This document shows positions 1 through 27,071 of a DNA stretch of 27,071 nt, piece by piece. The translations under genes were made by a program, and so were the position numbers. Numbering within the stretch: position 1 is the first letter of the stretch; each line of letters starts with the position of its first letter. A model generated the notes under the pieces. The model worked only from the letters and a program-made list of their open reading frames with translations. It was not told the origin of the DNA and ran no database searches. This DNA comes from Patescibacteria group bacterium (GTDB lineage: Bacteria; Patescibacteriota; Gracilibacteria; Absconditabacterales; Absconditicoccaceae), in contig JAGOPC010000011.1 of NCBI GenBank assembly GCA_017992195.1, forward strand, positions 1-27,071, written 5' to 3'.

Positions 1-689
1 TCCATCGGTTACTGCTGCTCATTGCACCGACGTCGCTGATTGCTCTCTATTTCATCCGTAAACTTCCTAAAGAAAAAATCACACTCAATCCACATTCAAA
101 GGCCCATCACTATAAAGACATTCGAAGGAATATTAAAAACATGCCAAGAAAACTCAGGACATACGGGTTTATTTATTCGGCAAGAAGTGCGTTTAATTCG
201 CTCTTGTGGCTCATCATTCCACTTTATATCTTTGCGGACACAAACAACATTTATCTCGTGGTGATAAGCGGGGTTTTGATGAGTATTCCGAGTTTATTTT
301 CATATCAGATAGGTAAGATCGCTGACAAACAAAACTCCTCAGCGATCCGGCATTCGTTCGTGATGATCGGCGTGCTCTTTCTCTCGTTTATCATGATGCC
401 ATGGTATCCGGGGAAGCTAATTATATTGTTTGTGCTGGCGGTGCTATTCGTTTTCCTTTGACTCACTATCGACAATCTCTCGAACAGATTCGTCCACCCG
501 CATCAGTATGGCAGAGTAGAGGCGACCTTCGAAATCTTCGGGGCATTTGGCTCTATCATCGGACCGATCATCGGATGATTTTTCATGGATGATTTCGGGA
601 TTATGACTATGATGCTTATCATGGGAATCTCAGCGCTGAGTGTTAGTATCTTCTACTATCATAAGCAGAAGTATCTACAACATACATAA
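1..689 (+). CDS. MFS-type transporter, C-terminal part (5' end outside the window)
   Basis: The frame starting at nt 3 is open from the window edge to TAA at 687-689. It reads through two TGA codons (459-461, 576-578). The product is very hydrophobic, with MFS-like segments (IGKIADK..., FGAFGSIIGPIIGGFF). Confidence 0.6.
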
Positions 690-745
690 AAAATATCATA
701 TCTGTCAACGCTAACTCATCTATAGCGAGCCAGTAAACTTTGACT

Positions 746-773
746 TTGCAGAGGGGGAAGTTATCTCTATAGT
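746..773 (+). promoter_or_regulatory. sigma70-like promoter, TTGCAG-N16-TATAGT
   Basis: -35 at 746-751 and -10 at 768-773, about 45 nt upstream of the ATG at 819. Confidence 0.4.
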
Positions 774-818
774 GATCATACAGGCAACTTTAGACGTATG
801 TAAAAGACAAGCAAAGCG

Positions 819-2339
819 ATGCAGGAATTTGGCTGGAAGAAGCCTGAAATCAGAGGTCGGAAGTTTTATACAAAACAGATAAACTGGTGTTTTGTTATTT
901 TGGCATTCACTGCTTTCGCATGTTTCGCATTTTATAATAATGTTTCAAGGCTCGTCTTCGCCGAAAATAAGACCGACTTGTTCCAGAACAACCTCGAGGA
1001 TCTGGCCTTTTATTTCATGGGCCGGGATCAGGATACCGCTAACCTGCTCATGTCGATCGATAGTGTAAAACGCAATTACGCAAAGGGAGATGCCAACTTC
1101 ATCAGAGACAATAAGGGGAATATGGAATATATCCTGCAATATCTCTCTAACCATCCCGAACAGCTCAAGCAACTTGGCCTTCACTCATACTCAGGAATCA
1201 TCGACGTCATCAGCGACATCTCAAAATATAATGACGATATTTTCTCGCTGCTGGGAGAAACAGAGGAGCAGAGATATCTTGTGGTCTTACAAAACAGTGC
1301 TGAAAAACGCCCAAATGGCGGTTTCTTCGGTTCATTTGCGATCGTAACGATCAAAGATGCGACGATCACGAACATCCAGCTGATGGATAGCTACTATCCA
1401 AATAAGCTTGATCCAAGCGCTACAATTAAGGCCCCCGACCGAGCGACTAATACGTTCCTTTCAGGCGAAGACACCATCACTTTCCTAGCATCAAACAAGT
1501 TCGGCTTCACCGATATGGACGGAAAGAATATTAAGGCGATCTACGAAAAGGTCTTCCACAAAACTGTCAGAGGAGTCATCTTCCTCAATTCACAGGCTTT
1601 TGCGGATCTCATCCCAGGCTTCGACAAGAAACTCAGAGAGTGGATGTTTACGAACGCTGCGACTGACATCATCCGCGGCGGAAACTTTCCGAACAAGAAA
1701 GAGCACTATCTCAAAGAGGTGGCAGAAATATTGAACAGTCAAAAGGATACTCTTATCAAAAACATGGTAAAAAATATCCGCTACCTTCTGGACAACAACT
1801 ACTTCCACGTCTATCTCGACAACGCCGGAGGCGGACTTACCAAATCTTTAGTGACGCAAGGTCTTACAACTAGCTTCCGCGACGATCAGATCTACTTCCG
1901 GGATTACAATAACGCCTACAATAAGATCGACATGTTCATCAAGAAAAATATTGTATTCACGGACATGAATGGAGAAAGAGTGATCGATACCTCGAAAGAT
2001 ATTGTTGATATAAAGAGTTTGGCGACAGGAACGTATAATGTTTCTATCAGCTATGCATTAAGTATACCGCCGAGCTACCCGCAGGAGATTGAGGATCTCG
2101 AAAAGAAGTACGGTATAGAACTGACGATCAGAGAGAAAACAATCTTAGGTCTTTACGCAGCACGGTCAACGAGAGGAGTTGTCTATGCGCCGAAGCATGT
2201 CGTTATCTCAAACGTTGAGGGTCAGCAGAAGTCGAGCCAGCTCTTCGACACACCATTTTCTCATAACGCGCTGTATATCCTGCAGAACGGGACGGATAAC
2301 ACTATAAAGACCGTAAGTATGCAGATTGAGATCAAATAA
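819..2339 (+). CDS. DUF4012 domain membrane-anchored protein
   Basis: 506 aa ORF running from ATG to TAA. It has an N-terminal TM segment (WCFVILAFTAFACFAFY). The motif LVVLQNSAEKRPNGGFFGSFAIV matches the hallmark QNxxExRPxGGFxGS of DUF4012. There is no internal TGA. Confidence 0.7.
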   Translation: MQEFGWKKPEIRGRKFYTKQINWCFVILAFTAFACFAFYNNVSRLVFAENKTDLFQNNLEDLAFYFMGRDQDTANLLMSIDSVKRNYAKGDANFIRDNKGNMEYILQYLSNHPEQLKQLGLHSYSGIIDVISDISKYNDDIFSLLGETEEQRYLVVLQNSAEKRPNGGFFGSFAIVTIKDATITNIQLMDSYYPNKLDPSATIKAPDRATNTFLSGEDTITFLASNKFGFTDMDGKNIKAIYEKVFHKTVRGVIFLNSQAFADLIPGFDKKLREWMFTNAATDIIRGGNFPNKKEHYLKEVAEILNSQKDTLIKNMVKNIRYLLDNNYFHVYLDNAGGGLTKSLVTQGLTTSFRDDQIYFRDYNNAYNKIDMFIKKNIVFTDMNGERVIDTSKDIVDIKSLATGTYNVSISYALSIPPSYPQEIEDLEKKYGIELTIREKTILGLYAARSTRGVVYAPKHVVISNVEGQQKSSQLFDTPFSHNALYILQNGTDNTIKTVSMQIEIK

Positions 2340-2586
2340 GATGTCATAAATTATAACATAAACTTTAAAAGTCTAGAGGCATTTTTAATGTTGCTATTGA
2401 TTTATAGCAAAAAAGGGATACGTAGCGCTCGCACAACAATATTGTTCACGCACAACACAAAAACCTTTTTATGACGCACAAAAAAAACAAGAAAAGAAAG
2501 TACTGATCGTAGGTGGATATGTAGACGTACCGTCCAATTGTCTCATCCTGGATGTAAAGAAAGATGCTGTTACACCCGGAGAAAAA

Positions 2587-3174
2587 TTGATTCGATTCTA
2601 CGAAAAAAAGAACAGACTCGACTTCGAACGACAATTAATTACTGCTATGAAAGCACTATTATCTCTCCCTTTAGAGATAGTTAACGTAGCCGATGGTGGT
2701 ATAAAATCAGAAGAAGGCGCTGTAGGACGGCTTATTGATATCGCCTGGACGGAGGTTGAAGGAACCATCGACTATCGAGCACAGTATACACATCCGATAG
2801 TAGTTCCTAAGGACCGGGCAACCCTTGTGAAAGATATGTGCCCCGACCTTGTCCTCTTCTTAGGAGGAACTCATACAGAATGGGAAGACTTGCAAATATG
2901 TAAGGAATTGAAAATACCCATGATAGCCCCGAAAGGCTGGAGCGACATTGGAGATATGGTCTTCAATGAGATAGCTTGGAACAAGAAACGCTACTTCGGT
3001 AGAAAATCTGTTGCACGAAAGTCCAGCAAAGTAGCTCAAGCATTCTCGCTTTTTGGCTACCTCTATAAGGACAATCAGTACGCTCCGTACCTTGATCCCT
3101 ATAATATCAAACTACTGGTCAAAAGTATTCTATCGCTGCCTCTCAGCGTACTACACACAGAACAGATTGGCTAA
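2587..3174 (+). CDS. SLOG/LOG-like Rossmann-fold protein (hypothetical); true start probably further upstream
   Basis: ORF ends at TAA and contains LFLGGTHTEWED, similar to the PGGxGTxxE motif of LOG/SLOG proteins. The same frame stays open back to 2389 and encodes a convincing beta-strand start (KVLIVGGYVDVP), but has no ATG or GTG there. An ATG at 2471 lies one frame off, across an A8 run (see findings). Confidence 0.45.
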   Translation: MIRFYEKKNRLDFERQLITAMKALLSLPLEIVNVADGGIKSEEGAVGRLIDIAWTEVEGTIDYRAQYTHPIVVPKDRATLVKDMCPDLVLFLGGTHTEWEDLQICKELKIPMIAPKGWSDIGDMVFNEIAWNKKRYFGRKSVARKSSKVAQAFSLFGYLYKDNQYAPYLDPYNIKLLVKSILSLPLSVLHTEQIG

Positions 3175-3256
3175 TAAAGCCGGCACACACGATTGAAATA
3201 ACTATCGATTTTTTCTAAGTCGATAGTTTTCTTGCGGTTTAAATATGTTTTCGCCA

Positions 3257-3284
3257 TTGACTTTAATATGCTACAGGATATAAT
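3257..3284 (+). promoter_or_regulatory. sigma70-like promoter, TTGACT-N16-TATAAT
   Basis: -35 at 3257-3262 and -10 at 3279-3284, 24 nt upstream of the ATG at 3308. No SD motif in the leader. Confidence 0.6.
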
Positions 3285-3307
3285 ACATCAACACAAAAAC
3301 ATATTGT

Positions 3308-3676
3308 ATGAACTTTCAAGACAACAAAGAGTACGAAAAAACTCAGTTAGCGGTTGCTAAGCTGCTAAATAATTCCCTCAACTTAGTAGAGAGCGTCAAG
3401 AATATGGTGAAAGACGGTACACTCATATCTTTTACTAATGCTAGTGGCGTTTTAACCGGCGGGACTACTATGCTAACCGGCGCTATGGTATGGGACAAGG
3501 TGCATCCAACTATGATACTACTTGGTATAGTTCCTACGGCAGATCGCATACAGAAGGGCATACCAGATCTCTTTACAGGTCTCCGATTTAACTGTGAGGG
3601 AGAAACAGTTAAGATATATCTTATAAAATCAGAAGATCCGTATCTTGAGAGCGAAGTAGCAATAGAAGTGTTGTAA
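3308..3676 (+). CDS. hypothetical protein (122 aa), weak similarity to the N-terminal half of LOG/SLOG proteins
   Basis: ORF from ATG to TAA with its own promoter and terminator. The segment VLTGGTTMLTGAMVW...LLGIVPTAD loosely resembles the GGxxGxMxA...GxxP part of LOG-like proteins. Confidence 0.5.
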   Translation: MNFQDNKEYEKTQLAVAKLLNNSLNLVESVKNMVKDGTLISFTNASGVLTGGTTMLTGAMVWDKVHPTMILLGIVPTADRIQKGIPDLFTGLRFNCEGETVKIYLIKSEDPYLESEVAIEVL

Positions 3677-3706
3677 GGCCCAAGAGGGTCTAGCAATGTA
3701 CTGAAA

Positions 3707-3732
3707 AGCCCCGGCATGTCCGGAGCTTTTTT
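3707..3732. terminator. rho-independent terminator between convergent genes
   Basis: Stem AGCCCCGG/CCGGAGCT (one mismatch), 5-nt loop and a T6 run on the + strand, with TTTT on the - strand. It lies between the 3308..3676 gene (+) and the pcrA 3' end (-). Confidence 0.6.
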
Positions 3733-3758: not shown

Positions 3759-6047
3759 TTATTTCTTCTCTAAAAATCTCGCTTCTATCTTCCTCACACC
3801 AAACTTTTCGTTCTGGAATTTGACGACAGCGGTGTCACGTCGGACTTCGATGACTTCGCCGACACCGAAGAGTTTGTGCTTGACGATGTCGTGTTCGTTA
3901 AGATCAGTTTTCACCGCGTAACGGCTCGTTCAAAATCAGCCACCAGTTGATCTAGCACCAGAGGCAGCGGTCAGGTCGAACATCTTCTTGAGTTCTTCCG
4001 GAATCTCGTCAATGAAGCGTGATGACTGATTGTATTTGGTTTGTCATCGCTGCTTACGAGAGTTCGCATGTGAGAGGAAGAGATGGTCTTTAGCACGCGT
4101 GATAGCGACGTACATCAGACGTCTTTCTTCTTCCATCTCTGCATCGTCAAACGCTGCCTTCGGCAAAGGGAAGATGTTTTCTTCCAGTCAGACGAGGAAT
4201 ACGACCGAGAATTCGAGGCCTTTGCTGGCATGTACGCTCATGAGCTTGACGGCTTCGAGTTGTCCATCAGTATTCTCTTCGATATCTGTCATGAGCGTCA
4301 CCTCTTCGAGAAATTGGGTCAGAAGGACCATGCCATTTTGCGCATCTTCGACTTCGTCACTGTCATATCTCGAAGCTATATTTATGAGCTGACCGATATT
4401 TTCGTACTTTTCTTCACCGACTTCACGTCACTCAGCTTCTATCAGGTAATCCTTATATTTAATAGTTCTCACCAATTGCTCGATCAACTTTGCGGGCGTC
4501 AGCCCGTCTGCAGCCTGACGAAGAAACTTCATAGATGTCATAAACTGGCTGATCGCCTTCTGCGTGGACGGTCCTAAGACCACTGGAAGCATATCGATCT
4601 GTTCTGCGACATCCGAAAAGGTCGACTTGTTTTGCTGAGCGTACTCTTCGAGCTTCGCGACACTGTCGGTTCCGATCTTTCTTTTCGGCGTATTGATGAT
4701 TCTTTTCAGCGCTACGGAATCTCTGGGATTCAGCAAATATTTCAGATACGACATCACATCCTTTACCTCTTTTCTTTCGAAGAATTTGAAACCACCATAG
4801 ACCTTATACGGTATAGCTTCCTGGAGGAGTACCTGTTCAAAGACCGCAGATTGCGCATTAGTCCTGTAGAGGATGGCGAACTCAGCCCGAGACTTGTTCT
4901 TGTCGGTCTTGAGCTTTTTCATCAAATCGATGAGTGTCATCGCCTCATCGGTCTCATCACCATGGGTGAAGACCATGATTTTTTCGTCACCGGAACGGTG
5001 AGGTACGACAGTTTTGTCGTACTGGTTTTTGTTATGTTTGATGATGAAATTTCCCGCGTGAACGATATGCGGACGTGAACGATAGTTAGTTTGAAGTTTA
5101 AATATTTGAATATCAGGCCACACTTTTTTGACCTCGAGAAAGTTCTCCATCACCGCACCACGCCGGCGATAGATCGACTGGTAGTCATCACCGATAAAGG
5201 TAATATTCGCGCCACCACCGGTCAGCTGCTTCATCAATTCAAACTGAATTCGGTTGGTATCCTGCGCCTCATCCACAAGAATATAGCGAAATTTCTGCTG
5301 CCAGCGCTTCAAAATATCCGGATTATTTTTGAATATTAAATACGGGACCAGCAACAGATCGTCGAAATCGCACATGTTACACTCGTGAAATTTCTTCTCG
5401 TAGCGCTCGTAGATCATACCCATCGTCTGCTCGTAACCATCACTACCATGGCCAAACTGTTTCGCCGTGATTCCCTGTCATTTCAACTTTGAGATAAACG
5501 AGCGAGCCTCCCTCACCTCGACATCGTTTTCCATCTTCAGATCCTTAATAATCTCCTTCAGGATCGACTGTGCCTCCTGCTCATCGTAGACACCAAAACT
5601 GCCATTTCGCGGCAATCCCTCAGCGTTTTTCATCTCCTCCTTGAGGAATCTCAGAAACATCCCATGAAAGGTGCCAATCCGCTTAAATGATCAAGAGTGA
5701 AAACGAGGAAGAGATCAGACATTATTATCTGCAGCTTCATCGGAAATCATCTTATCAAAATCCATAACTTCTTCCGTCTTTCACACCTGCATTTTTTCCG
5801 AGATCTCCTCGGCTATCTTCACAAGTCTTTCCTTCATCTCATTCGCTGCCTTATTGGTGAATGTCACCGCCAGCACCTGATCGGATCTGACCTTTTTTTC
5901 AAACAGCAAGTATCAAATCTTGTATGTCAAAACTCTCGTTTTCCCTGAACCTGCACCCGCCAAGATAAGAGCTGAACTATCAGTATGTAAGGCAGCTTTC
6001 GTCTGCTCATCATTCAACTGTCCGCGTATATAATCCTTAATATCCAT
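3759..6047 (-). CDS. pcrA: ATP-dependent DNA helicase, PcrA/UvrD family (SF1)
   Basis: Single frame of 762 aa from ATG (6045-6047) to TAA (3759-3761), with 10 in-frame TGA and no TAA or TAG. Family motifs present: [69 protein letters not shown] (that G is a TGA), [15 protein letters not shown], and a C-terminal [10 protein letters not shown]. Confidence 0.92.
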
Positions 6048-6917: not shown

Positions 6918-7349
6918 ATGAAAAAACTATTTATTACAATCGCAGCGTTCGCGACATTGAGCGCGATCACAGACAGCTTAACAGCAGCAGGCAAAACAGA
7001 TGCAAGCATCTCCCAGACCATTGAAGCCTACGGCAGGGTGCATTACCCGGACCAGTACACCGATGCAGCCAGCGAAGATGTACAGGCAGTGATGGACAAC
7101 CTGGATGAGGATGACAATGGTATCAGTATGAGCGTTGACGACGAAGGCAACCTTACTATTACCAGCGCGCACAGTGATGACCAGGCCGCAGATGTAACTA
7201 TGAGCGATGATGCCGGCGCGGGCGACGCAGTAACAGCTTTGTTTGCAACAGCAGCTGAGGAAACTACGGAAGCAACAAGCGCCGAAGTAAATGAGCCTGA
7301 AACAGCAGAAGCTGCAATACCGGACGGCGACGCAACAACTGAAGCGTAA
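6918..7349 (+). CDS. secreted acidic low-complexity protein (signal peptide)
   Basis: MKKLFITIAAFATLSAITDSLTAAG is a typical signal peptide. The remainder is rich in D, E, A and T. Stop is TAA. Local GC is visibly higher than in the flanks. Confidence 0.6.
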   Translation: MKKLFITIAAFATLSAITDSLTAAGKTDASISQTIEAYGRVHYPDQYTDAASEDVQAVMDNLDEDDNGISMSVDDEGNLTITSAHSDDQAADVTMSDDAGAGDAVTALFATAAEETTEATSAEVNEPETAEAAIPDGDATTEA

Positions 7350-8559: not shown

Positions 8560-8695
8560 TACGCGAAGTAGTATCCTACTGAAAGCGGCCCTTAACATTT
8601 TCATTCTATCTATCACACTTCCTTTTTTAGCACACACATAAAGATCAAAGACCAAACCAAATTATAAAACAAACAAGCTAAAAAAACGAAGTATC

Positions 8696-9139
8696 ATGAA
8701 AACAAAAATCATCGTTGCGCTGGCGAATTCCAGTGTCGTGAAAAAAAGAGTCCAGCAGGAGCTGGAAGGCGTAAAATGCAGTACGCCGGCAGAAGTTGCA
8801 AACTGGCTGGGGAAGCTCAGCTACACTGATGAGCATCTCATCATCATCGTCGGTCATACCGGCGGGGTAGAGATAGCTGAGATGGTAGCGAAGCTGAGAA
8901 GCAAGACAGGGTTAAATCAAGATCCGATTGCAGGCTCAAAAAACCTGGAAGTACATTACTTCTCAAGCCAAATGCTGCAAAAAAGACATGAGACTCTATT
9001 CAACTCTCGGATAGAACGGCTCTATGGAAACCACACCGAAAACCTGATATTATTCCTACAGAAACAAACAGGGCATCTACACGAACACGTGGAACAGTTT
9101 GTCAAAGAAAACGAATTAGTTTTAGAATTTGCCGCCTAA
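8696..9139 (+). CDS. hypothetical protein (147 aa)
   Basis: ORF from ATG to TAA, followed by a terminator. No motif recognised. Confidence 0.55.
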   Translation: MKTKIIVALANSSVVKKRVQQELEGVKCSTPAEVANWLGKLSYTDEHLIIIVGHTGGVEIAEMVAKLRSKTGLNQDPIAGSKNLEVHYFSSQMLQKRHETLFNSRIERLYGNHTENLILFLQKQTGHLHEHVEQFVKENELVLEFAA

Positions 9140-9176
9140 AACGATTCGTGATTCGTCAATGTATCCCTCTCACTAT

Positions 9177-9209
9177 GGGAAGAATGTTTATCATTCCTTC
9201 CCTTTTTTT
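9177..9209 (+). terminator. rho-independent terminator
   Basis: Stem GGGAAGAATG/CATTCCTTCCC (one bulge), 5-nt loop, followed by T7. Confidence 0.65.
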
Positions 9210-9226
9210 ATACAAAAAATCTACAA

Positions 9227-9254
9227 TTGACTTCAAGAAGACAAAGCATAAAAT
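9227..9254 (+). promoter_or_regulatory. sigma70-like promoter, TTGACT-N16-TAAAAT
   Basis: -35 at 9227-9232 and -10 at 9249-9254, 28 nt upstream of the ATG at 9282. Confidence 0.55.
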
Positions 9255-9281: not shown

Positions 9282-10343
9282 ATGCAGCTAAAACTAGACT
9301 TTGTATACGATAACGTGCAAGATGCTTTTATCAAAAATGGGATCACTAATGAGTCAAAAGAGCTTTGACCCTATATTTTTATGTTTCTACAAAAGAAAAA
9401 AGACGACATACAAAGAGTATTAGAGCTGTCCACGCAGATAAAATGGGTGCAAGATCAATTTGTGTGAGCGAATTTTCCAAGAAATTATACAGACGCTCTT
9501 ATAAAGGTGGTATTGAAGAAAAAACTATTTAATGAGCTTGTATGGTTGATCGATGACAGCTGATATTTACGCTGAGTAAAAGCTGTAATTAAAAAGAACC
9601 AGGAGATGAAAGAAGACGGATATGGATTTTATCTGAAGAATAAGGGGAATAGTAAATTTCCGAGATTTTGATCATTATCGCTTGGCTACTCAAGAGTATC
9701 ATTGGCCTATCTTCTTCAGAAAATTGTGAAAGACGTGGAGAAGTTTAAAAAAGCATATGAATGATTGTATAGTTATCATAGTACTGCTCGAGATCCTCCC
9801 AAAAGTAAATCCAAAGCACACGAAGATACACTGAGGGACGTGCTTGAGTTTATCGTAGGTGGCGGGCGAGACATAGAAGACGATGATATAGGAAACTTCT
9901 CCAGATTGCGTGTTGCGCTTGTACAAGATATCAGATCGACATGACTACCCGATGAGGTTCTGGAAGAGCTTGAAATGCGTTTAAAAATCAAGGAAAAGAG
10001 CGAACGTAAAACATTGTGAGACGCCGACAGCCAACAAGACTTTTTGGAAGCATTTTTCTGCTACTTCAGCTTTATGGACGCTATCCCTGCATTTATCGAA
10101 AAGCGAAAGAGCGGTGAACAAGGGAAGCAAGAGCTGATCACTGATTTCACTATCAAATATCATAATGATCCTCATGTAAATCCTAGACTTATCGGCATGT
10201 CTCCTTCTCAGCTTGGAACAAAGGAATTTGAAAAGAGATACCAAACACGAGCGAACCAGGAGTATAAGGATAAAGATGGTCTGAAGAAGAAAAGAAGAGA
10301 TATCATTGACGATGGAACAATGTTTGCGGATCAATACTACTAA
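9282..10343 (+). CDS. hypothetical protein (353 aa), visible only with TGA=Gly
   Basis: Frame 0 has no TAA or TAG from 9252 to TAA at 10341-10343. It contains 8 in-frame TGA (9366, 9465, 9561, 9573, 9669, 9762, 9942, 10017). The ORF track shows only its last 99 aa (10044..10343). A consensus promoter lies directly upstream. Confidence 0.7.
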
Positions 10344-11380
10344 ACCAGATTTTCCGGCATCCGATCTATCTTAAACCCACGACCTACCATATTCAATTTT
10401 TCAAAAGCTCCATCTAAAAAAGGACGCACTCACGCTCATTTTATCACGATATTATATCTATACTTGTCGTGCATCTTGTAAACGAGGGGAGGAGTAGCGT
10501 AGATTTCCAGCTTATTCTCTGATTTCTCCGCGAGAAATAAGAGCTCCTGATAGAGCTTGTTAACTGTCGTAAACATCTTCTGTTCGATCTCATTTTTATA
10601 GAGGACCACAGCGATCTCAGTGTAAGGAGGATAGAGATGATCCTCACGAAATTTCTTTTCTCCCAATGCGAAGGCCTCAACATCTCTGTTACACGCGCAA
10701 CGGATAGCGGGACTATCAGTATGATATGACTGCACGATGATATTATCAGCGTAGTTGTCAATAATACTCGACAGCGTCGTAAAGGTCTTTTCATGCGACT
10801 TATAGTCGGGGATGTGCAGGCCGCTATCCGCATTGAATATAATCACCAGATCCGGCTTCCGGTCTTTCGGCGGAGTCGCCAGCAACGATGTTCAAACGAT
10901 AACCTGCGCATCCTGCAAAAGCGGCATCAGCTTCTTCACCTTTGCCTGACTGTTGGCCGTTTCCGAATCTATCGTCAGCACTCTCATCGCCCCAAACTCT
11001 TTCTGCAATAGCCCCTCGAGCTTCTGCACGCCACTTCCATAGAGCTTAATATTATGGCCATGACACTGTGGACACTGCCCAAACGAACTATAGTGCTTCT
11101 TACAGATATGACAAATCCCATAGAGCTCGCCATGCACATCCTGATGAAACGCAATCGGGATATCACAATGATCACACTTCGGCACAAGTCCGCAATCATC
11201 ACACAGCATTCCAGTTGCAAAGCCCTTTTTATTCGCGATGATCAGCACCTTCTTACCCTCCTTTATCATCTTACGAATCCCACCATCGGCCAACGACGAA
11301 AATCCTGAAGCTGTCCTATCCTGCTTCATATCAACCAAAAATATCTTCTTATCCGCGCGCTCAAAGCGTTCATAATTCAT
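10340..11380 (-). CDS. priA: PriA-like protein, C-terminal half only (Cys-rich Zn region, helicase lobe 2 remnant and C-terminal domain)
   Basis: 346 aa from ATG (11378-11380) to TAG (10340-10342) with 3 in-frame TGA (10892, 10436, 10430). All four CxxC pairs are intact: CDDCG..CDHC..CHIC..CPQC. It has IVGTS (G is a TGA) matching PriA IGTQ, and a C-terminal KIDRMPENLV resembling the PriA tail. There is no Walker A or DExH part. An upstream in-frame stop lies at 11447 and a terminator sits 40 nt upstream. The motif VI position reads IIDNYADN instead of QVAGRAGR. Confidence 0.75.
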
Positions 11381-11477: not shown

Positions 11478-12503
11478 CTATTTTACCGCAACTGATTGTT
11501 GTCTTTTTTCCAACTCACACCATAAATCCGACGGAATCATGTTACACATAAAGGTAACCAGTTCGTGAAACTCCAGGCCAGCAACTGATCTAAAGATGTA
11601 GTTAAAATTAAGCTCTGCCGCAAACGGCATCTCATATGCTTTACAATGTTCAACATACGAAGCATAGTCTATGATCGGATTCTTATGAAAACCGCTCAGC
11701 ATCTTATCCTCGATAGCCACACTAAACAGTAGAGGATTTTCAAAGCTACCTGCTACGAATATCTCAGAACAAACAAAAGGAACCGGACCTAAATGAGAAA
11801 TACCCTGATGAAGACTAAAAAGCACTCTGCCTACGCCCGGTTCTGTTATTCCTTGCACGGTAAAAGCCCTGAGAAAGGCAAGCATTTCTTGCGTATAGTT
11901 CAGCTCTGCATTAAACTTTTGCGCAGCAGCCTTAGAACTTTCAATCGCGTTATAGAACTCCTTTCGCATACTAACCTTTTTGCTAGGATCAGTAAATTGC
12001 ATATCACCTGATTTCGAAATAGTTTCCACTAAGCGCCCATATGTACCTTCTGGCATATATAAGTGAGGTAAACGAGCCTTATAATCAGCAGGGATACTAG
12101 TTGCGATGAACTGTAATAAATCAGCCACCGGCAACGCTTCCATCATGTAGTCGAACACATTATAGTCTATTGCCTTGAAATCATGAACTGTGCAATAATC
12201 ATAATAGTTACTATAATCTTCCATCGGTACATGCTCACATATCGCAATACTCAAACTGTTTCTAAATACGATACTCAACAGTTTTCTTTCGAGAAGAGAG
12301 TATACCATACATGTCACATAATAGTCATTATTTTCTTGCTCTACTAAATAGACAAGAGAATACCGCGACTGATTATATTTGAAGACAATTTTCCATTTAC
12401 CGTGAGGTGCCTGCTGCGATGATTTAATCTGAAATAATGTTGAACTTTTCATACAAGTTTTTTTTGATGTAATTAATGTTAATGTCCGCGTCATTATTGA
12501 CAT
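11478..12503 (-). CDS. hypothetical protein (341 aa)
   Basis: ORF ends in TAG and has no internal TGA. It has its own promoter and terminator. The ATG at 12501-12503 lies 5 nt downstream of a -10 box. Alternative starts are ATG 12491 or the later MKSS Met. No motif recognised. Confidence 0.6.
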   Translation of the reverse strand: MSIMTRTLTLITSKKTCMKSSTLFQIKSSQQAPHGKWKIVFKYNQSRYSLVYLVEQENNDYYVTCMVYSLLERKLLSIVFRNSLSIAICEHVPMEDYSNYYDYCTVHDFKAIDYNVFDYMMEALPVADLLQFIATSIPADYKARLPHLYMPEGTYGRLVETISKSGDMQFTDPSKKVSMRKEFYNAIESSKAAAQKFNAELNYTQEMLAFLRAFTVQGITEPGVGRVLFSLHQGISHLGPVPFVCSEIFVAGSFENPLLFSVAIEDKMLSGFHKNPIIDYASYVEHCKAYEMPFAAELNFNYIFRSVAGLEFHELVTFMCNMIPSDLWCELEKRQQSVAVK

Positions 12504-12508
12504 TTCCA

Positions 12509-12536
12509 ATCTTAATCATGGACGGATATAAGTCAA
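12509..12536 (-). promoter_or_regulatory. sigma70-like promoter, TTGACT-N16-TAAGAT, predicted leaderless
   Basis: On the - strand: -35 at 12531-12536 and -10 at 12509-12514. The ATG begins 6 nt after the -10 box. Confidence 0.5.
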
Positions 12537-12582
12537 TCACAATTACAGTAGTTTTTTGGCTTCTTTTCCTTAGAAATAAGGT

Positions 12583-13485
12583 ATGTTACGTCACCAGCCA
12601 GTTATGGCGAAAGAGGTTTTTGAGTCACTCCCAACGGATCGGAAGGTCTATGTCGATGGGACTTTTGGGCATGGTGGACATGTAGAATATATACTGAATG
12701 AAATGACGCAATGAGGAAATGAGGAGACCTTACAATGAAGAAAAGTGATAGCGATCGACCGTGATGAGAAGATGCTGGAGAAGGGGAAGGAGCTTTTGAG
12801 TAAACATCATAAGTACATTGAGTTTGTTCGTGATACCTATAGCAATATTGACGGAATATTGGCAAAGGAGATCATCCAGAAAGCTGATTATATATTGCTT
12901 GATCTAGGTGTGAACATGGAACACTTTAAAGACCCGGAGCGTGGTTTTTCGTTTCTGCATGACGCGCCGCTGGACATGCGTTTTGATCAGTCAAGTGGAC
13001 AGACGGCAGCGATGGTAGTGAATACGTATTCGCGCGAGAAACTTGCGAAGATGTTTACAACCTATGGAGACTTTGCACCAACGAGCGGGCTGTATATGGC
13101 AGATGCGCTCATAGAAAAGAGGAGCGAGGGACATATCCTGACGACGCATGAGCTCAATGACACCCTCAGAAAGAAATGAATCAGAAAAGACCAGATGGCG
13201 GTGGTGTTTCAGTGCCTGAGAATAGAGACCAACCAGGAGTTGGATGCACTATTAGAATTTTTGGATGAGTTTCCGAAAATGTTGAATAAGGGCGGAAGAT
13301 GCGCTATTATGACCTACCACAGCATCGAGGATCGTCTGGTGAAGATTGCATTTAAGAAGCTGTGCGAGGAAAACTCGGCCTTCGTGCTCTACAATAAGAA
13401 AGTTATAGCGCCGCACTATACCGAGGTGCAGCATAACAGGGCTGCGAGAAGTGCGAAGTTACGCGTGATCGAAAGAATTGCATAG
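12583..13485 (+). CDS. rsmH: 16S rRNA (cytosine1402-N4)-methyltransferase RsmH (MraW)
   Basis: 300 aa from ATG to TAG with 3 in-frame TGA (12712, 12736, 13177). Family motifs present: HQPVMAKEV, YVDGTFGHGGH, AIDRD, LLDLGV, ERGFSF, APLDMRF, FQCLRIETNQEL, MTYHSIEDRLVK, RSAKLR. Confidence 0.9.
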
Positions 13486-15038: not shown

Positions 15039-16070
15039 TCAGTCAAAGTACGTATTGACCGCGTCGACTAGCGGCTCATAATCCCTGATCAGCGCAACAA
15101 CATTCTTGAAGTCTCTATTTCCTACTAAGCCGTTCACATAGTTGAACAGATACTTTCTATATTCGATAACCGACTTGCCGATCTCATATTTCGTCACATC
15201 AAAGTTTTCTACTTCGTCCATCCATTGCTTATATGATGGTTGTGGAAATTTGTCGGTGAAATGAAGATTTTTGTTGTAATAATCGTACGAGATAATCATT
15301 AATTTGAGATGAAAAAGTATGATCTCACGACGTTCTTCAGGAGTGGGCTCGTGATTTACAAAAATTCGTGGATCGGCGATCGCAGCCTGGCCTATCATGA
15401 TTCAGTCTAGATTTTTCCTCAGTTCCAATGCTTGCTCGTAGGATTTCACTCCACCATTTCAAATGATCAGACATTGATCCCCGACAGCCTTCTTCACATC
15501 GTAAATATAGTCCCGATCAACCGAGCCCGAATGCGACTGCTTATAGGTCCTACCATGGATCGTGATCGTCTTGCAGTGCGGCGCAGCAGCGATGATAAAC
15601 TCTTTTTGCGCAGCCTTATCGTCATCAGTGAGGCCGGCACGGGTCTTGATACTAAAGGGCAGAGGAGCTACCGCATCTTTCAAACGCTTTATCAACTCCA
15701 ATGTTTTTTCTTTTTCCCTCATCATACCTGCACCACCTCCACACGCCATCACCTTTGGCGATGGGCAACCTATGTTGAGCTCGAGACCAGCGAATCCAGG
15801 ATATTTCGTGACGATATCTTTTGCGGTTGCGACCAAATCATCATGATCTCACCCGTAGATCTGCGCTATGGTCTGCGTCTCAAAATCGGTCTTAATAATA
15901 TGATGAACTAAGCGCTGAGGCTGGCGAATATAACCTTCCGCATTCATAAATTCGGTCCACATCCGCAACTTCGTATCAGGATCCTTATTATATTTCTCAA
16001 AAATCTGCTTCACGACGATGCGGTAAGCAGCATTAGTGATCCCATCCATCGGAGCAAGTCACATAATCAT
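15039..16070 (-). CDS. dus: tRNA-dihydrouridine synthase (Dus family)
   Basis: 343 aa in one frame from ATG (16068-16070) to TAA-type stop, with 4 in-frame TGA (16059, 15849, 15459, 15402). Family motifs present: LAPMDGITNAAYR, QIYGGD, LELNIGCPSPKV, SIKTRAG, ITIHGRT, IIGNGG, LDGIMIGQAAIADPRIF. Confidence 0.9.
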
Positions 16071-16987: not shown

Positions 16988-17845
16988 TTAGAAAACCTCT
17001 TTACTCGTATCCGGCAAAGCGCAATAATTAGCGATAGCATGCAGCGCCTTCGGGTTGATCGCACGCTTACGGAAGGTCCTTGTGTACCCGATCACGCTAA
17101 GAGCAGAGACCACATCACCAGAGATGCGATAGGTGAACACGTGTCTCGTCCGGTCTGCCTGCAATTGCGTATCAGCGATCAGCTGGGCAAAGGTCGGATT
17201 GGCACTTGAACCCGGATTGAAGACAGTACAGCGATCGGGCAGAAACTTCTTGGCGATAAAATAGGCGATGGTTCCACCGAGAGAGTGACCCGTCACCCGC
17301 GCCTTATAGTCAGGATATAGTTTTTTTGCTTCCTCATAAACATGAACTGACACATTGAATCTATCGTTCCACGATTGCGTTCCGAACACTATGTGCAGGT
17401 CACTAATATAGTCCTTCACCTCAGTAAACTCTGTCCCCCTGTAGCCGATAATCCGTGTCTTAAGCGCATGATTCACATAGAGCGCATACTCAAACTCGTT
17501 GAACTTTTCATCAAGCTCATAACCAAAAATATGTCTCGGGCGCTCGAACGGATTGAGATAAACTCTGTCCGAAATATAGGCACAAGGCAGATCCTGCGGA
17601 TCCAAGTTTATATCATCTTCTTCAAAAACCTTATCAAAAACTCCCGAAAATGACGTATGAATACTTTCCCACTGGCTCTTTATACCTTCCGTGGGGATCG
17701 ATTCCATGATTCCACCAAAAAAATTGCTCTTCTCGGCAATATAATCCACCGGCTTCTTGAGCGTCTTACTGGTCACATCGAGCGCATCTTTTCCGAATAC
17801 ACTGAGCGACGACCACATATTCTTGAAAGCAGAACCTAATCACAT
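16988..17845 (-). CDS. class-3 lipase-like alpha/beta hydrolase
   Basis: GHSLGG nucleophile elbow (VTGHSLGGTIAYF) preceded by YRGTE, as in the lipase_3 family. Stop is TAA. The start is taken as ATG 17843-17845 (MGLGSAFKNMWSS, with one TGA at 17840) because a -10 box ends 6 nt upstream. The alternative start is ATG 17818. Confidence 0.7.
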
Positions 17846-18312: not shown

Positions 18313-19044
18313 CTAAGAAAGCAGTTTCCTGATAATCTCCAGAGCGCGAGTTTGATCGATAAAATAAGGAGAAGTCGCAATCGTAACAACAGCGGCAGAG
18401 GAGATAAGCTGCTTTAGCAGGCTGATTTTATGATCTATGTCCGTTTCATGAGCGAAAAAATCTATGTCGATATCTACGATATAAGATCATAGAGCGTAGT
18501 TCATAGATCACAGATTTTGTACCACCTCTTCTAATGTAAACTCGGTTCTTATCTGAACGCACTCATGAATAAGTCATGAGCGAAGAGCGGGCTGGATGAA
18601 AGAGGCTATCTGCGTCTTGGTGTTCACATATTCAGAAATATAATCGAGATCTCATTGCCTTTCCTGATCGATTCGTTCCGCAGGCTCGTTCATATCGGCG
18701 TGCTGATCGATGTGGAGGAGAGTCATTCACTCTGTAATTATTTTGTTGCGCAACGCTTCATATCGAAAGTAAAGAGCGTGGTTGTGATTGTCGGTGATGT
18801 AGATGGTCTTATTATGGCTCACTATTCTCAGCAATGATTTCAATCCCTTGCACGGTACAAGCTTACCATCTTCAATCTCTTCAAAAACGATATTTTCTCA
18901 CAAAAGGAGATCATCCACAGTTCAGTCCACTACTTGCGCTATGTGCAATTTTCCGTGTGATCACAAAGCCATTCTTTCGACATAGGAGATCGCATTATTT
19001 CCTACTGGCTCGGTGAGTCGGGTCTCATGTGTATAAAAGTTCAT
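18313..19044 (-). CDS. UPF0489 family protein (C5orf22-like, putative metal-dependent hydrolase fold)
   Basis: 243 aa from ATG (19042-19044) to TAG (18313-18315), with 8 in-frame TGA and no TAA or TAG (checked triplet by triplet). It is absent from the ORF track. Its motif series ITDNHNHALYF / LLHIDQHADM / IVDIDIDFF / VTIATSP parallels VVEDHQEVLPF / FLHFDSHPDL / VLDIDLDFF / VTIARSS of UPF0489 proteins as I recall them. Confidence 0.75.
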
Positions 19045-21866: not shown

Positions 21867-22229
21867 ATGGATATCATCGGAGCAACCAAATTCAACGAAC
21901 TTATCACAACCTCAGATAAACTTATCATGGTGGACTTCCGGGCAGAGTGGTGCGGACCTTGTCGTATCCTCAAGCCAGTTCTCGAACAACTCGCTGAAAA
22001 ATACGCTGACAAAGTTGAGCTCGTCAAAATAGACGTAGACGCTCAGGATAACTATCCACTCGCTGTTGAGTACCAGGTAAATAGCATCCCACAAGTCACT
22101 TTCTTCAAGAACGGAGTAAAAGTCGACCAGTTCATCGGCGTAGTACCACCGGTAAGAATCGATGAAATCATCAATCAGCATGCGGGCGATATGGCAATTC
22201 CAAGTAAGGATTCGCCGATGGCAGCGTAG
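21867..22229 (+). CDS. trxA: thioredoxin
   Basis: 120 aa with LIMVDFRAEWCGPCRILKP (WCGPC active site) and the thioredoxin-fold order (VDVD...IPQVTFFKNG). The start is taken at the internal ATG 21867 of ORF 21804..22229. Stop is TAG. Confidence 0.88.
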   Translation: MDIIGATKFNELITTSDKLIMVDFRAEWCGPCRILKPVLEQLAEKYADKVELVKIDVDAQDNYPLAVEYQVNSIPQVTFFKNGVKVDQFIGVVPPVRIDEIINQHAGDMAIPSKDSPMAA

Positions 22230-22498: not shown

Positions 22499-23566
22499 AT
22501 GTTTTCACCTACTATCCCTTATAATGATCTGCCTTTGCTGCCAGGAAGCTATAATTTTCATAAACCCGAGCATATACAACTTGCCCTGCGCGCGAACCAA
22601 GCGCTAGGTAAGCTTGACGGATTATCACTTCTTTTGCCTGACTATACGCTACTTATAAGTCCTTTACTGGCAAAGGAATCAGTAGCCAGTAATGCTATAG
22701 AAAATATCAATACCACCACTATTGAATTCTTACAAAAAGAGGCGACGGGATCTAAACTGTCAGGAGCGGAAAAAGAGGTTGCATATTATCGTACAACTCT
22801 TCTTCAGGGGATGAGTCTTCTCGAAAAGGAAGGAGGTATTTCAACGAATATGCTTATACATTTACAAGCGATCATAGAACCCGATAAGACAGGTATAAGA
22901 AAAATCCCTGGTACTGTTATCGCGAATAGCACGGGAGAAGTTCTATATACCCCACCCGAGGGAGAACACAAAATCAGAGATCTTCTGGCAAATCTTGAAA
23001 GTTGGATCAACAGCAATGATGGTATTGATTCTCTTATAAAGATGCCCGTTATTCACTATCAGTTTGAGTCGATCCACCCATTTTACGATGGTAATGGAAG
23101 AATAGGAAGAGTCCTCATGATGCTCTATCTTATGCTCACAAAAAAAATACAAAAACCTGTATTATTTCTCAGTTCATATATCCTTCAACACAAGCAAGAG
23201 TACTACCTATCTTTAAAAAGAGGTGAAGAGGAGCATAATTATGATTCTATTATTACCTTTCTTCTTACCGGTATCATAGAGCAAGCACAGGTGACACAAG
23301 AGAAAATAATAGCCATAAACGCATGCCTGAATAAGTATATAGGGATCTTCCAGCAACTTAAACTGAGAGATTACCATCTTCTTGCTACAACATTTTTTAG
23401 ATCCGCCTTCGTTTCGATAAATACGCTTACCGAAATCAGCAACCTTTCGAGACAATCTCTTTCTCTTTACATAAAAAAACTTGAGGACAAAGGTGTAGTC
23501 AAAACAATTAAAGTGTGATCACACAAGTTAGCATTTATACCTGAGTTTATTGAGCTGATAAAGTAA
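22499..23566 (+). CDS. fic: Fic/DOC family AMPylase with Fic_N region, internal inhibitory motif and C-terminal wHTH
   Basis: It has the Fic motif HPFYDGNGRIGR. The N-terminal SNAIEN fits the (S/T)xxxE(G/N) inhibitory helix. The C-terminal LTEISNLSRQSLSLYIKKLEDKGVV is wHTH-like. The standard stop TGA (23516) is read as Gly, giving a further 15 aa (GSHKLAFIPEFIELIK) up to TAA at 23564-23566. Confidence 0.88.
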
Positions 23567-23576
23567 GTAATACAAA

Positions 23577-23700: not shown

Positions 23701-24666
23701 ATGGCTAAAAAGATTCCTACGCGGAAAAAGGTAGCATGAGCAATATTAGGAACGGGAATATTAGGAGGCTGATTTTTAGCTTATCCTAGCTTTATGAGCC
23801 AGCAAAAAGCATCTTTAATAGATGCTGCTACAAACTGTAAAACTATATATGAATTTTCATGAAACCATTCTGTGTATCATTTTAAATGAGAACAAACTGA
23901 ACTAAACATAGAACTAAAAAATCTTTCAGAGGGAACAATATGAACAACGGATGAGCATAATCATAGTACAAGAAATTGTAGAATAATGTACATGTATGAC
24001 AATACCAGCACTGGCTATCAAAATATAACCTGACTGATAGCAAAATGAGAAAGCAGCTTCTTAACTATCCCTGTACAAACTCATTCTATAGGCAATACAG
24101 GTAAAATTTCAGTAGATTTAGTTTGCACAGATCAACGGAGTAATAGTTGCAGCCCTGAAGGGAAAGCATTCCTAGCAGACTATAAGGAAATTGATCTAAG
24201 TGGTTTAAGAATATTTATAGTATCGCAAATACAAGGAGTCGACAATTTGAACAATAATATTAAAGATTTTAAAAAAGAACTCTGACGAAAGAACATGAAG
24301 GCGATATCTGTGTATCCTAGTGTTTCCATAGGTAATCCTGGATATGCAGTAATTTTATATAACGAAAAACGCTTTAACGCACTTTGACCAGAGTTAGCGT
24401 TTATAAGCAGGAAACTACAGTTGAGATTTTCTCATTTTAACTATATAGTGTCATGAGCAATCAATGATGAAAACTTTAATGAGCATTTTTGAAATCTTAA
24501 CGACTGCACCCTCCCAGACGATAAAGGCAAATTGGCTTGCTCTTTAGACGGCTACTATTTTGATAACATAGCAGATAATTTTGTTTTCAGTAAAAGAATG
24601 CTAATGAATGATACAAATTTAGAAACTATTGATTTCATTGTAGATATTCCAAGAGTGAAGCCTTAA
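23701..24666 (+). CDS. membrane-anchored hypothetical protein (321 aa), visible only with TGA=Gly
   Basis: The ORF track reports no ORF of 60 aa or more across about 1 kb here. Frame 1 from ATG 23701 to TAA 24664-24666 has 11 TGA and no TAA or TAG in a visibly AT-rich stretch (checked codon by codon). It has an N-terminal TM (VAGAILGTGILGGGFLAYP), then a polar domain containing several Cys. Confidence 0.7.
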
Positions 24667-26567
24667 CCTCTCTCAGCTAACTCCAACCACCTAGTCTCTT
24701 TCTCGCCTAATACCTTCGTAATTTCACCCATTTCCTTACCTAATTTCTTCATCTTATCACCATCTAGCATCTCTCCCTGATACATGAAATTGATCTCATC
24801 AACTCTTTTTTCGAGGACGGAAATTTCTTTGCCAAGGGTGTCCATTTCGAGCTTTTCTTTGTAGGAAAGCTTTTTCTTTTCAGGGAGGACGGCGGCTTCT
24901 TTCGTGGCTTCCTGCTTTTGTCTTTGGGCCTGCAGTTCTTTTCTTTCGAGTTGTTGTTGCTCGGATCTGTGAGCCACGTATTCACTGTAGGATCCTCGGA
25001 AATCTGTGACTTTGCCGTCTCATTCGAATGCAAAGATATGGTCGACGATACGGTCCATGAAAAATCTGTCATGAGAAATCACTATTAGGCAGCCCGTATA
25101 GTCAAGGAGGAACTCCTCAAGGATCGCGAGGGTGACGAGGTCGAGATCGTTAGTAGGTTCATCGAGTATCAGGAAGTTTGGATTTTTGATAAGAACCATG
25201 AGTAAGTGGAGACGTCTTTTTTCACCTCAGCTCAGTGTGCTTGCGAAAGCTTGTTGTTGAGCGGGGGAGAAGAGAAAGCGTTCGAGCATTTGTGAGGCGG
25301 TGAGTTTCTTTCATTTTGCGACGAAAATATATTCGGCAACATCTCTGACGACGTCGATGACTCTTTTATCGGTTTGGAAGAGGGATTGCGTTTGCTGGTA
25401 GTGACCCATGTAGATAGTCTTTCACTGTTGGATATCGCCGCTGTCGGCCGGTTCTTCGCCGGTGAGGATATTCACGAAGGTGGACTTTCAGACACCGTTT
25501 TTGCCGATGATACCAACGCGTTCGCCATGTCTAAAGTCATGTGAAAAGTCACGGAGAATAGGCTTATCACCAAAGGATTTTTTGAGGTGGTGGATCTTGA
25601 GGATCTTGTCACCCATTCTTCTTTGGTTCACTTCGATGGTGAGTTTTTTGGCTTTTTCATTCAGTATGCTTTTGCTAGCTTTGTAGGTATCTTCCAGCTC
25701 TTCAAAATCTTTGATCCTCGCATACTGCTTCGTTCTTCTAGCGCCGGGAGCTCTGCGCATCCGGTCAAGCTCGTGCCTTCGGAGCTGTTTCATATTGTGG
25801 ACGGTTTTTTGCTCGAGCTCTTCACGCTGCGCTTTCTTTTCGAGAAAGATTTGATAGTTACCGTTGTATGAGTGGATCTTTCCTCTGTCGAGTTCGAGGA
25901 TATTGGTACAGACGCGTTCGAGAAAGTAACGATCGTGCGTGACGAGAAGTAACGTTAAATGAGATTGTTTTAAGTAATTTTCCAGCCGTTCGATCATGTC
26001 GAGATCAAGGTGATTAGTAGGCTCATCTAATATGAGGAAATCAGGTTCATCGAGGAGCGCCTTTGCAAGAGCGACACGTTTTGCTTCACCTCATGAGAGT
26101 GATCACATAGGGGTGGTGAGATGTTGCGTGAGATTGAGCTGACCGATGATAGTCTTCACTTTCACTTCGTACTCCCGGGCATGGGCTTCTTCGATCTGGT
26201 GGAGGATCTTTTGCATCTCGTCTTCGCTGTGGTTTGGATCGAGGAGAAGAGCCTCGTAGTGTCTGATGAGTTGTCATAGTTCGTTCTCATGCGTGAAGAG
26301 CGCTTCAAGAACAGGCATATTTGGATCTACTTGAAAATCTTGAGCGAGAAAAGAGACGCGCACATTCTTCGTGAAAGTAATATCGCCCGCACTTCACTCA
26401 AGCTGACCCATGATGAGCTTGAGAAGTGTAGTTTTACCTGCGCCGTTCTGCGCAACGAGAGCAACCTTCTGTCACTTTTCGATGGCAAAATTAACATCCT
26501 GAAGCAGGGGTTTCCCGGTGAATGACTTATAGAGCTTTCTGACGAGGAGGTATTGCATGAGGTTCAT
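24663..26567 (-). CDS. uup: ABC-F family ATPase with C-terminal coiled-coil domain (Uup-like)
   Basis: 634 aa in one frame from ATG (26565-26567; alternative 26558) to TAA (24663-24665), with 10 in-frame TGA. It has two NBDs: QNGAGKTT and GKNGVGKST (middle G is TGA 25488). LSGGE occurs twice (a G is TGA at 26091 and at 25227). LILDEPTN occurs twice. The C-terminus is a charged coiled coil. Confidence 0.92.
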
Positions 26568-26572
26568 GATAT

Positions 26573-26598
26573 AAAAAAATGCCTTGTAAACAAGGCAT
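26573..26598 (-). terminator. rho-independent terminator
   Basis: On the - strand: perfect 8-bp stem ATGCCTTG/CAAGGCAT, 4-nt loop, followed by T7. The ABC-F ATG follows within 6 nt. Confidence 0.65.
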
Positions 26599-26627
26599 TC
26601 CGGCTCTTTAGCAGCACGAGGTTGAAA

Positions 26628-27071
26628 TTAATTGGGGAAGAGTTCTAATTTTTTCATAAAATCTTCATCCCTGAAAGCTCCTATAGCCATGAGCGTTTCG
26701 CTTTCACGGCATCCGGGACAGTCACAGTAGGCATCTTTTACCGGCTGATCCTTGATGTACATGGACCCATGATGGCAGCGATGTTCATGCGGAGGAAAGA
26801 CATTGCAGCCGTCGCATATCTTGTCGCGAGGCGGCATACCAAAGCAAATAGTAAGCACTTTCGCTTCAGGCTGTCCAAAGAAGTAATCTAATTTTAATGT
26901 GGAAGCTGCCAACAACTTCTTTGTAAAATAAAGAGCTTCTATGGAGCAAACGGCGCTTTCGGTAGGCATGAGGCTTATTTGTACCTCCTCCTGATCAGCA
27001 TTCCTGCTTCTCTGGTTGAGATAGTAAATCGTCTTATTCACAGTTCCAATAAAACCTTGAAATGCTATGAA
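26628..27071 (-). CDS. Cys/His-rich hypothetical protein (start uncertain, may lie beyond the window edge)
   Basis: The frame is open from the window end to TAA at 26628-26630. It contains CDGC...HEHRCHH...CDCPGC, suggesting a zinc-binding module. Possible internal starts are GTG 27041 or a later Met. Confidence 0.45.
   Translation of the reverse strand, partial: FIAFQGFIGTVNKTIYYLNQRSRNADQEEVQISLMPTESAVCSIEALYFTKKLLAASTLKLDYFFGQPEAKVLTICFGMPPRDKICDGCNVFPPHEHRCHHGSMYIKDQPVKDAYCDCPGCRESETLMAIGAFRDEDFMKKLELFPN

Follow-up and report, generated by a model that had tools for sequence, protein, structure and literature searches.

The question raised by the 27,071-bp window analysed here (the whole stretch of contig JAGOPC010000011.1 from assembly GCA_017992195.1; G+C content about 0.42) is which genetic code its genes are written in, since recognisable conserved genes are broken by TGA codons when the standard bacterial code (code 11) is applied. 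A first-pass annotation had proposed that UGA is decoded as glycine, as in genetic code 25, and that the DNA comes from a bacterium of the Gracilibacteria/Absconditabacteria type. Our analysis supported this proposal and pointed to a second change that the first-pass annotation had overlooked, in which CGA and CGG act as codons for tryptophan. The window is very probably chromosomal DNA of an uncultured bacterium of the Absconditabacteria/Gracilibacteria group (GTDB class JAEDAM01), in which UGA would be read as glycine and CGA and CGG as tryptophan, with only UAA and UAG terminating translation. Both reassignments are already known for this clade, from 2013 and 2021, and the window adds a further member to it.

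The coverage of the window by open reading frames (ORFs), calculated from greedily chosen non-overlapping ORFs of at least 100 aa, rose from 63.0% under code 11 to 89.7% when TGA was treated as a sense codon, and the ORF map obtained with code 4 was identical to the latter. As controls, the same relaxation was applied to TAG and to TAA, giving 66.9 and 69.5% coverage, respectively. In 79 standard-code metagenome loci used as a specificity control, the gain in coverage with TGA as sense was at most 0.11 and mostly 0.00–0.06; in recoded relatives it was 0.11–0.75. The stop codon of all 27 TGA-sense ORFs was TAA or TAG, no gene ending in TGA was found, and the credible genes contained about 80 in-frame TGA codons. 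In 14 or 15 genes from a total of about 26, TGA occurred deep within the coding sequence; in up to five more it lay near an uncertain start, so that 14–20 genes contain TGA, in rough agreement with the earlier estimate that about 18 of roughly 30 genes would be affected. When the products of the five genes given below were aligned with homologues of solved structure, each stayed in one frame through its TGA codons, and no TAA, TAG or frame change was needed in any of these alignments (for PriA, over its C-terminal half).

3759–6047, minus strand: PcrA/UvrD-type helicase with 10 TGA, 4 CGA and 3 CGG codons; Pfam UvrD-helicase and UvrD_C; aligns to PcrA (1pjr) and UvrD (2is1)
10340–11380, minus strand: PriA-like protein, equivalent to just the C-terminal half of PriA; aligns to residues 406–711 of PriA (4nl4)
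12583–13485, plus strand: RsmH (MraW) 16S rRNA methyltransferase with 3 TGA and 1 CGG; Pfam Methyltransf_5, 256 bits
15030–16070, minus strand: Dus, tRNA-dihydrouridine synthase, with 5 TGA and 3 CGA/CGG; Pfam Dus, 138.2 bits with CGA/CGG as arginine and 149.4 bits with CGA/CGG as tryptophan
24663–26567, minus strand: ABC-F (Uup/EttA-type) ATPase with 10 TGA and 5 CGA/CGG; Pfam ABC_tran (twice), ABC_tran_Xtn and ABC_tran_CTD; aligns to residues 20–537 of EttA (4fin)

ORF coverage and single-frame alignments bore out the earlier statement that the breaks in conserved genes are always in-frame TGA codons. The standard-code ORF track is indeed wrong, and most of the genes (more than half) are broken up under code 11.

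The amino acid to be assigned to UGA was assessed from homologous columns, solved structures, orthologous codons and profile scores. A metagenome scan with the ABC-F protein yielded 80 homologues of 43–52% identity, 79 of which are standard-code and were used as an independent control of the alignment columns. Pooled over these 79 homologues, the ten TGA columns of ABC-F contained 72.8% glycine and 0% tryptophan, and the columns in which the window has GGN contained 66.7% glycine. Seven of the ten TGA sites showed at least 85% glycine; beside the Walker A and the two signature glycines listed below, three further sites had glycine in 76–79 of the 79 sequences. At the 21 TGA sites alignable to the best PDB match, glycine was present at ten, the remaining ones being A, S, D, N, T, V, E or R, and tryptophan at none. 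In addition, codon alignments were made with orthologues from two GTDB genomes (about 78% amino-acid identity), a Logan contig (about 91%) and SR1 RAAC1 (about 52%), restricting the tally to true frames and excluding conserved off-frame ORFs. The following sites were diagnostic (NBD, nucleotide-binding domain).

25488–25490, minus strand: TGA, Walker A glycine of ABC-F NBD2 (GKNGV-G-KST); G in 79 of 79 homologues and in EttA
26091–26093, minus strand: TGA, signature glycine of ABC-F NBD1 (LS-G-GE); G in 78 of 79 homologues
25227–25229, minus strand: TGA, signature glycine of ABC-F NBD2 (LS-G-GE); G in 79 of 79 homologues
4188–4190, minus strand: TGA, conserved glycine of PcrA (VFLV-G-LEE); G in the PcrA and UvrD structures; TGA, GGC, GGA and GGA in relatives
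4044–4046, minus strand: TGA, conserved glycine of PcrA (RKQW-G-QT); G in PcrA and UvrD; TGA, TGA, GGA and TGA in relatives
10892–10894, minus strand: TGA in IV-G-TS of the PriA-like protein, opposite the G of 'liGtqmla' in 4nl4; GGA, GGT and GGA in relatives
15402–15404, minus strand: TGA in D-G-IMIG of Dus; G, A and G in three solved Dus proteins; GGC and GGT in relatives
15459–15461, minus strand: TGA in II-G-NGG of Dus; S, A and T in solved Dus proteins; GGA in both relatives
12736, plus strand: TGA of RsmH, aligned to G in 1m6y and 1wg8
13177, plus strand: TGA of RsmH; GGC, GGC and GGA in relatives

Orthologous partners of the TGA codons of the window were GGN in 24 cases, TGA in 20 and serine codons in nine, with others making up the rest, and many TGA codons were retained at the same site, or occupied by GGN, in relatives diverged by 9–48%. 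Among 79 aligned positions no TGA was paired with TGG; since the two codons are a single third-position transition apart and would be synonymous under code 4, this tells against tryptophan. Replacing tryptophan by glycine at TGA changed the Pfam scores by +11.5 bits for ABC_tran, +7.4 for Dus, +3.2 for UvrD_C and +2.1 for PriA_C, was near neutral for UvrD-helicase (−1.0 bit) and RsmH (−0.5), and gave a sum of +22.7 bits. These four lines of comparison support UGA as a glycine codon, rather than a tryptophan codon or a stop. TGA codons thus occupy conserved glycine columns, with the ORFs restored to UAA or UAG ends. Each TGA cited in the first-pass annotation proved to be in frame, on the minus strand and within the motif named there, and its argument that tryptophan (code 4) misfits these positions agreed with the tabulated residues, which were mostly glycine and never tryptophan. 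Its assertion that several TGAs sit at invariant glycines held for the Walker A motif and both LSGGE signatures, was matched by conserved glycines at the PcrA sites, and failed for position 15459 of Dus, which is to be taken as a small residue and not as an invariant glycine because solved Dus proteins carry serine, alanine or threonine there.

A second reassignment was indicated by PcrA, in which the invariant tryptophans of the W-x-GTFH motif and of helicase motif III (Y-x-W-RGA) were translated as arginine, both being encoded by CGG. The 7613 codons counted in the window include 80 TGA, 33 CGA, 34 CGG and 35 TGG, the last three being about equal in frequency; TGG makes up 0.46% of codons, and the share of tryptophan would rise to 1.3% if CGA and CGG were counted with it. 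The sites bearing on these codons are the following.

25986–25988, minus strand: CGG, invariant ABC-F tryptophan (DMIE-W-LENY); W in 79 of 79 homologues and in EttA
25761–25763, minus strand: CGG of ABC-F; W in 79 of 79 homologues and in EttA
26175–26177, minus strand: CGG of ABC-F; W in 79 of 79 homologues, the EttA alignment being unclear here
5679–5681, minus strand: CGG, invariant PcrA tryptophan before GTFH (FK-W-IGTFH); W in UvrD; TGG in four of four relatives
5163–5165, minus strand: CGG, invariant tryptophan of PcrA helicase motif III (SIYR-W-RGA); W in PcrA and UvrD; CGA, TGG, CGG and TGG in relatives
4047–4049, minus strand: CGA preceding the TGA of RKQW-G-QT in PcrA; F or Y in the structures; TGG in the relatives L001 and L002
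15366–15368, minus strand: CGA, tryptophan of 'P-W-IF' in Dus; W, N and F in solved Dus proteins; TGG in L002
15513–15515, minus strand: CGG, tryptophan of 'D-W' in Dus; W, W and H in solved Dus proteins; TGG in L002
21867–22229, plus strand: thioredoxin; Pfam Thioredoxin, 94.7 bits with tryptophan and 90.2 bits with arginine
21939–21941, plus strand: CGG, tryptophan of VDF-W-AEWCGPC in thioredoxin; W in solved thioredoxins (F or Y in PDI-like domains)
819–2339, plus strand: DUF4012 gene with no TGA and 5 CGA/CGG; Pfam DUF4012; used as query for finding relatives

CGG was therefore present in conserved tryptophan columns of ABC-F, PcrA, thioredoxin and Dus, its three sites in ABC-F being tryptophan without exception in the standard-code homologues. 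In the orthologue alignments, CGG was paired with TGG 22 times, CGA with TGG 15 times and CGA with CGG 11 times. Taken jointly, CGA and CGG faced TGG at 37 positions and CGT, CGC, AGA or AGG at one. Considering CGA separately, 15 of its 20 non-identical orthologous positions were TGG and none was another arginine codon, so that it also fell in tryptophan columns and apart from the arginine codon class. As a control, CGT, CGC, AGA and AGG were paired with arginine or lysine codons, with TGG in none and with CGA or CGG in three of about 370 cases. Four of the five CGA/CGG sites of the DUF4012 gene were TGG in at least two relatives, and the three CGA sites of PcrA that face arginine in Geobacillus PcrA were TGG in relatives. 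Changing arginine to tryptophan at CGA and CGG raised the summed Pfam scores by 27.3 bits (UvrD-helicase +9.5, Dus +11.2, thioredoxin +4.5, ABC_tran_Xtn +3.2 and RsmH −1.1). A screen of all 64 codons in the orthologue alignments flagged only TGA, CGA, CGG and TGG, no other reassignment being detected there. By comparison of codons and residues, then, both CGA and CGG behave as tryptophan codons, and 'code 25' as proposed at first pass was right with respect to UGA and incomplete with respect to these two.

Several points weigh against the combined reading of UGA as glycine and of CGA and CGG as tryptophan. The evidence for it is entirely comparative. With ARAGORN, neither the window nor any of eight related loci (12–22 kb around the DUF4012 and PcrA orthologues, from sources that include SR1 RAAC1 and contigs of 148–282 kb) yielded a tRNA gene, and hence no tRNA-Gly(UCA) or tRNA with anticodon UCG or CCG was found there. 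Distant homologues speak less for CGA than for CGG, giving one clear tryptophan column (P-W-IF of Dus), and two CGA sites of ABC-F lie in columns that are variable among the 79 homologues (F/Y/L/M and P/N/L). The orthologue counts are not independent events, because up to four relatives were pooled per site. Finally, a G+C content of 0.42 and a CGG frequency of about 45–47 per 10,000 codons exceed what has been published for the reassigned clades, so that the window lacks the low G+C and rare CGG that are typical, though not defining, of them. What is shown directly is that the ORFs are restored and which residues these codons correspond to.

The alternatives differ in how much of this evidence they can accommodate. 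If the window used code 11, its TGA codons would be real stops, to be explained by pseudogenes, sequencing errors, selenocysteine or programmed readthrough; it is the default code, and nothing else speaks for it. We consider its probability practically negligible: all of the approximately 80 interruptions are TGA, with zero TAA, TAG or frameshifts, many of their sites are conserved or hold GGN in diverged relatives, housekeeping genes align at full length across them with glycine and not cysteine or selenocysteine as the aligned residue, and genes do not end in TGA. Moreover, no Rfam family matched the window at gathering thresholds, and hence no selenocysteine insertion sequence (SECIS) element or other RNA was found. 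Code 4, by which UGA would be tryptophan as in Mycoplasmatales and some endosymbionts, explains the ORF structure as well as code 25 does, and public Logan translations of relatives do place tryptophan at TGA. Tryptophan also scored marginally better in UvrD-helicase (1.0 bit) and RsmH (0.5), probably because a true tryptophan codon beside the TGA had been read as arginine. It would, however, put tryptophan at the invariant glycines of the Walker A and ABC signature motifs, at a cost of 11.5 bits in ABC_tran and 7.4 in Dus, and neither the 79 ABC-F homologues nor any solved homologue has tryptophan in a TGA column, nor does TGA ever pair with TGG, which makes this code scarcely credible here.

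Plain code 25, with UGA as glycine and everything else standard, CGA and CGG included, shares the fully supported assignment of UGA. In its favour, three CGA codons of PcrA face arginine in the Geobacillus protein, and the CGG of RsmH and one CGG of PriA are in variable columns. Those same three PcrA sites are TGG in relatives, however, and plain code 25 would leave arginine at the ABC-F positions that are tryptophan in 79 of 79 homologues and at invariant tryptophans of PcrA, thioredoxin and Dus encoded by CGG or CGA. It would also leave tryptophan at just 0.46% of residues, forgo the 27.3 bits gained with tryptophan, and have CGA and CGG exchange with TGG 37 times and with the other arginine codons once. 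We therefore regard it as very unlikely, and retain the reading that assigns glycine to UGA and tryptophan to both CGA and CGG.

Following the literature on the clade, UGA would be decoded by a tRNA-Gly with anticodon UCA bearing the glycine identity elements G1:C72, C2:G71, G3:C70 and U73, and release factor 2 (prfB) would have been lost. The tRNAs with anticodons UCG and CCG would carry tryptophan identity (G73 and no A20) instead of arginine identity. Decoding of CGU and CGC would fall to tRNA-Arg(GCG), because bacteria of the candidate phyla radiation are taken from the literature to be without tRNA-Arg(ACG) and inosine wobble, and AGA and AGG would be read by their own tRNAs.

The GTDB class JAEDAM01 comprises Absconditabacterales plus BD1-5. 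UGA is reportedly glycine in SR1 and Gracilibacteria, as Campbell et al. and Rinke et al. are said to have described in 2013, and this is NCBI translation table 25. Table 25 has been assigned to the whole class JAEDAM01 (gTranslate preprint). The combination of UGA as glycine with CGA and CGG as tryptophan was described for Absconditabacteria (Shulgina and Eddy, 2021, eLife; PMC8629427), and later work treats the combined code as established (PMC13092985; KACI preprint). The window agrees with the Absconditabacteria code in that the same three codons have identical new meanings and arginine is left to AGA, AGG, CGU and CGC. It agrees with table 25 in that UGA is glycine and never a stop, coding density being restored with UGA as sense, and differs in that table 25 keeps CGA and CGG as arginine, which is wrong for the window. 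With code 4 (Mycoplasmatales, Hodgkinia, Zinderia, Nasuia, Stammera and some Eggerthellaceae) it shares a sense UGA and an equal ORF map, but in the window UGA is glycine instead of tryptophan. In the Bacillota with CGG as tryptophan (Anaerococcus and RFN20/Onthovivens; PMC8629427, PMC13092985) CGG has the same meaning as in the window, whereas CGA is arginine and UGA a stop there, and CGA behaves as tryptophan and UGA is glycine here.

As for the placement, the best named homologues of PcrA were from SR1 RAAC1 (54% identity), Absconditabacterales (53%) and Gracilibacteria (52%), within an overall range of 50–54%, which fits the Gracilibacteria/Absconditabacteria-type source suggested at first pass. 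The GTDB genomes closest to the window (78% amino-acid identity) carry the labels 'Candidatus Peribacteria' and 'bacterium'. The nearest GTDB representative (L001; OZ246420.1, a 1.1-Mb chromosome) was submitted under the name 'uncultured Candidatus Peribacteria bacterium' (phylum Peregrinibacteriota) and shows the same behaviour of TGA as glycine and of CGA/CGG as tryptophan as the window and a coverage gain of 0.28 with TGA as sense. Its Peribacteria label is probably wrong. As the class named by the label is not known to be recoded, mislabelling is the likelier explanation, and a code that has spread more widely is the less probable one. The sole locus among the 80 ABC-F loci that behaves as TGA-recoded (L020; Ga0256840_1010277, 5.3 kb, G+C 0.255; coverage gain 0.64) showed the highest identity of them all, 52%, and probably belongs to another JAEDAM01-type organism.

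Comparison of the window with the loci of relatives (L001, L002 and L003) showed that gene order is little conserved, even with respect to the 91%-identical relative. The DUF4012, PcrA, PriA C-terminal half, RsmH, Dus, lipase and MFS genes are shared, and their order and orientation differ between the window and these loci; a 922-aa ResIII helicase adjoins PcrA in L003 and is not found beside it in the window. The PriA-like protein, compared with residues 406–711 of Klebsiella PriA, comprises the zinc-binding cysteines, helicase lobe 2 and the C-terminal domain and is without the Walker A/B lobe. This 346-aa form is kept in relatives at 72–87% identity (for example, at 7284–8324 of L003). The upstream ORF at 11478–12542 (minus strand) was considered as the missing N-terminal half of PriA and rejected, since neither Pfam nor PDB offered anything similar. 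The other genes of the window with assignments from Pfam or PDB are given below; about 15 further ORFs are without a family assignment.

3–689: MFS transporter fragment
16988–17845, minus strand: class-3 lipase
18313–19044, minus strand: UPF0489 protein
22499–23566: Fic protein

The main value of the finding is practical and lies in correct annotation, as gene tracks made with code 11, 4 or 25 are all wrong for the window. Code 4 would place tryptophan at about 80 glycine positions, including those of the Walker A and ABC signature motifs. Table 25 alone would mistranslate about 67 codons, because CGA and CGG would be given as arginine where tryptophan is meant; this amounts to two thirds of the tryptophan codons and affects catalytic-core tryptophans of PcrA, thioredoxin and Dus. 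Both kinds of error were seen in public collections. The Logan-derived PcrA homologues P0001–P0003 have tryptophan at TGA (for example, 'VFLVWLEE' at a conserved glycine in P0001), and the NCBI table-25 PcrA homologue P0020 has arginine at invariant tryptophans ('LKRIGTFHS' and 'SIYGRRGA'). Homologues from the large collections were left out of the residue tally because their translations follow the code assumed by each pipeline, and such errors make homology searches and structure prediction less effective in the clade. Spurious long ORFs were also observed on the wrong strand when TGA was sense, at 3271–3717 (minus strand) and at 8610–9236 (minus strand), the latter with 208 codons, including 10 TGA and 8 CGA/CGG, facing a clean 147-aa ORF at 8696–9139 (plus strand). 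A gene caller with TGA as sense therefore requires a coding-potential model and not ORF length alone.

The window further differs from published Absconditabacteria in composition and codon usage. The published reassigned clades have a G+C content of 0.26–0.38, with CGG rare at below 7 per 10,000 codons in all but one species, and in the most advanced published case CGA and CGG reach 30 and 24 per 10,000 codons against 35 for UGG (PMC8629427). In the window, by contrast, G+C is 0.42, CGG is common, and CGA and CGG together make up 66% of the tryptophan codons, above that case. The corresponding share was 57% in the 91%-identical relative, 31–40% in the 78%-identical relatives and 26–47%, nearly all CGA, in low-GC relatives, these shares being indicative only, as each locus provides 6,000–8,000 codons and some uncertain ORFs are included. 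Tentatively, and with more doubt than confidence, we suggest that the lineage formed by the window and the 240-kb Logan contig SRR32417865_260 might represent the most advanced known stage of the arginine-to-tryptophan reassignment, in which CGA and CGG have overtaken UGG. Were this true, and were the whole genome to agree, it would mean that a captured codon can outgrow the original one once G+C rises again, and that for one clade annotation with table 25 gets most tryptophans wrong. The G+C content of 0.42 is above the low-GC range invoked for reassignment by codon capture; as a moderately GC-rich member dominated by captured tryptophan codons, the window would thus bear on how codons spread after capture.

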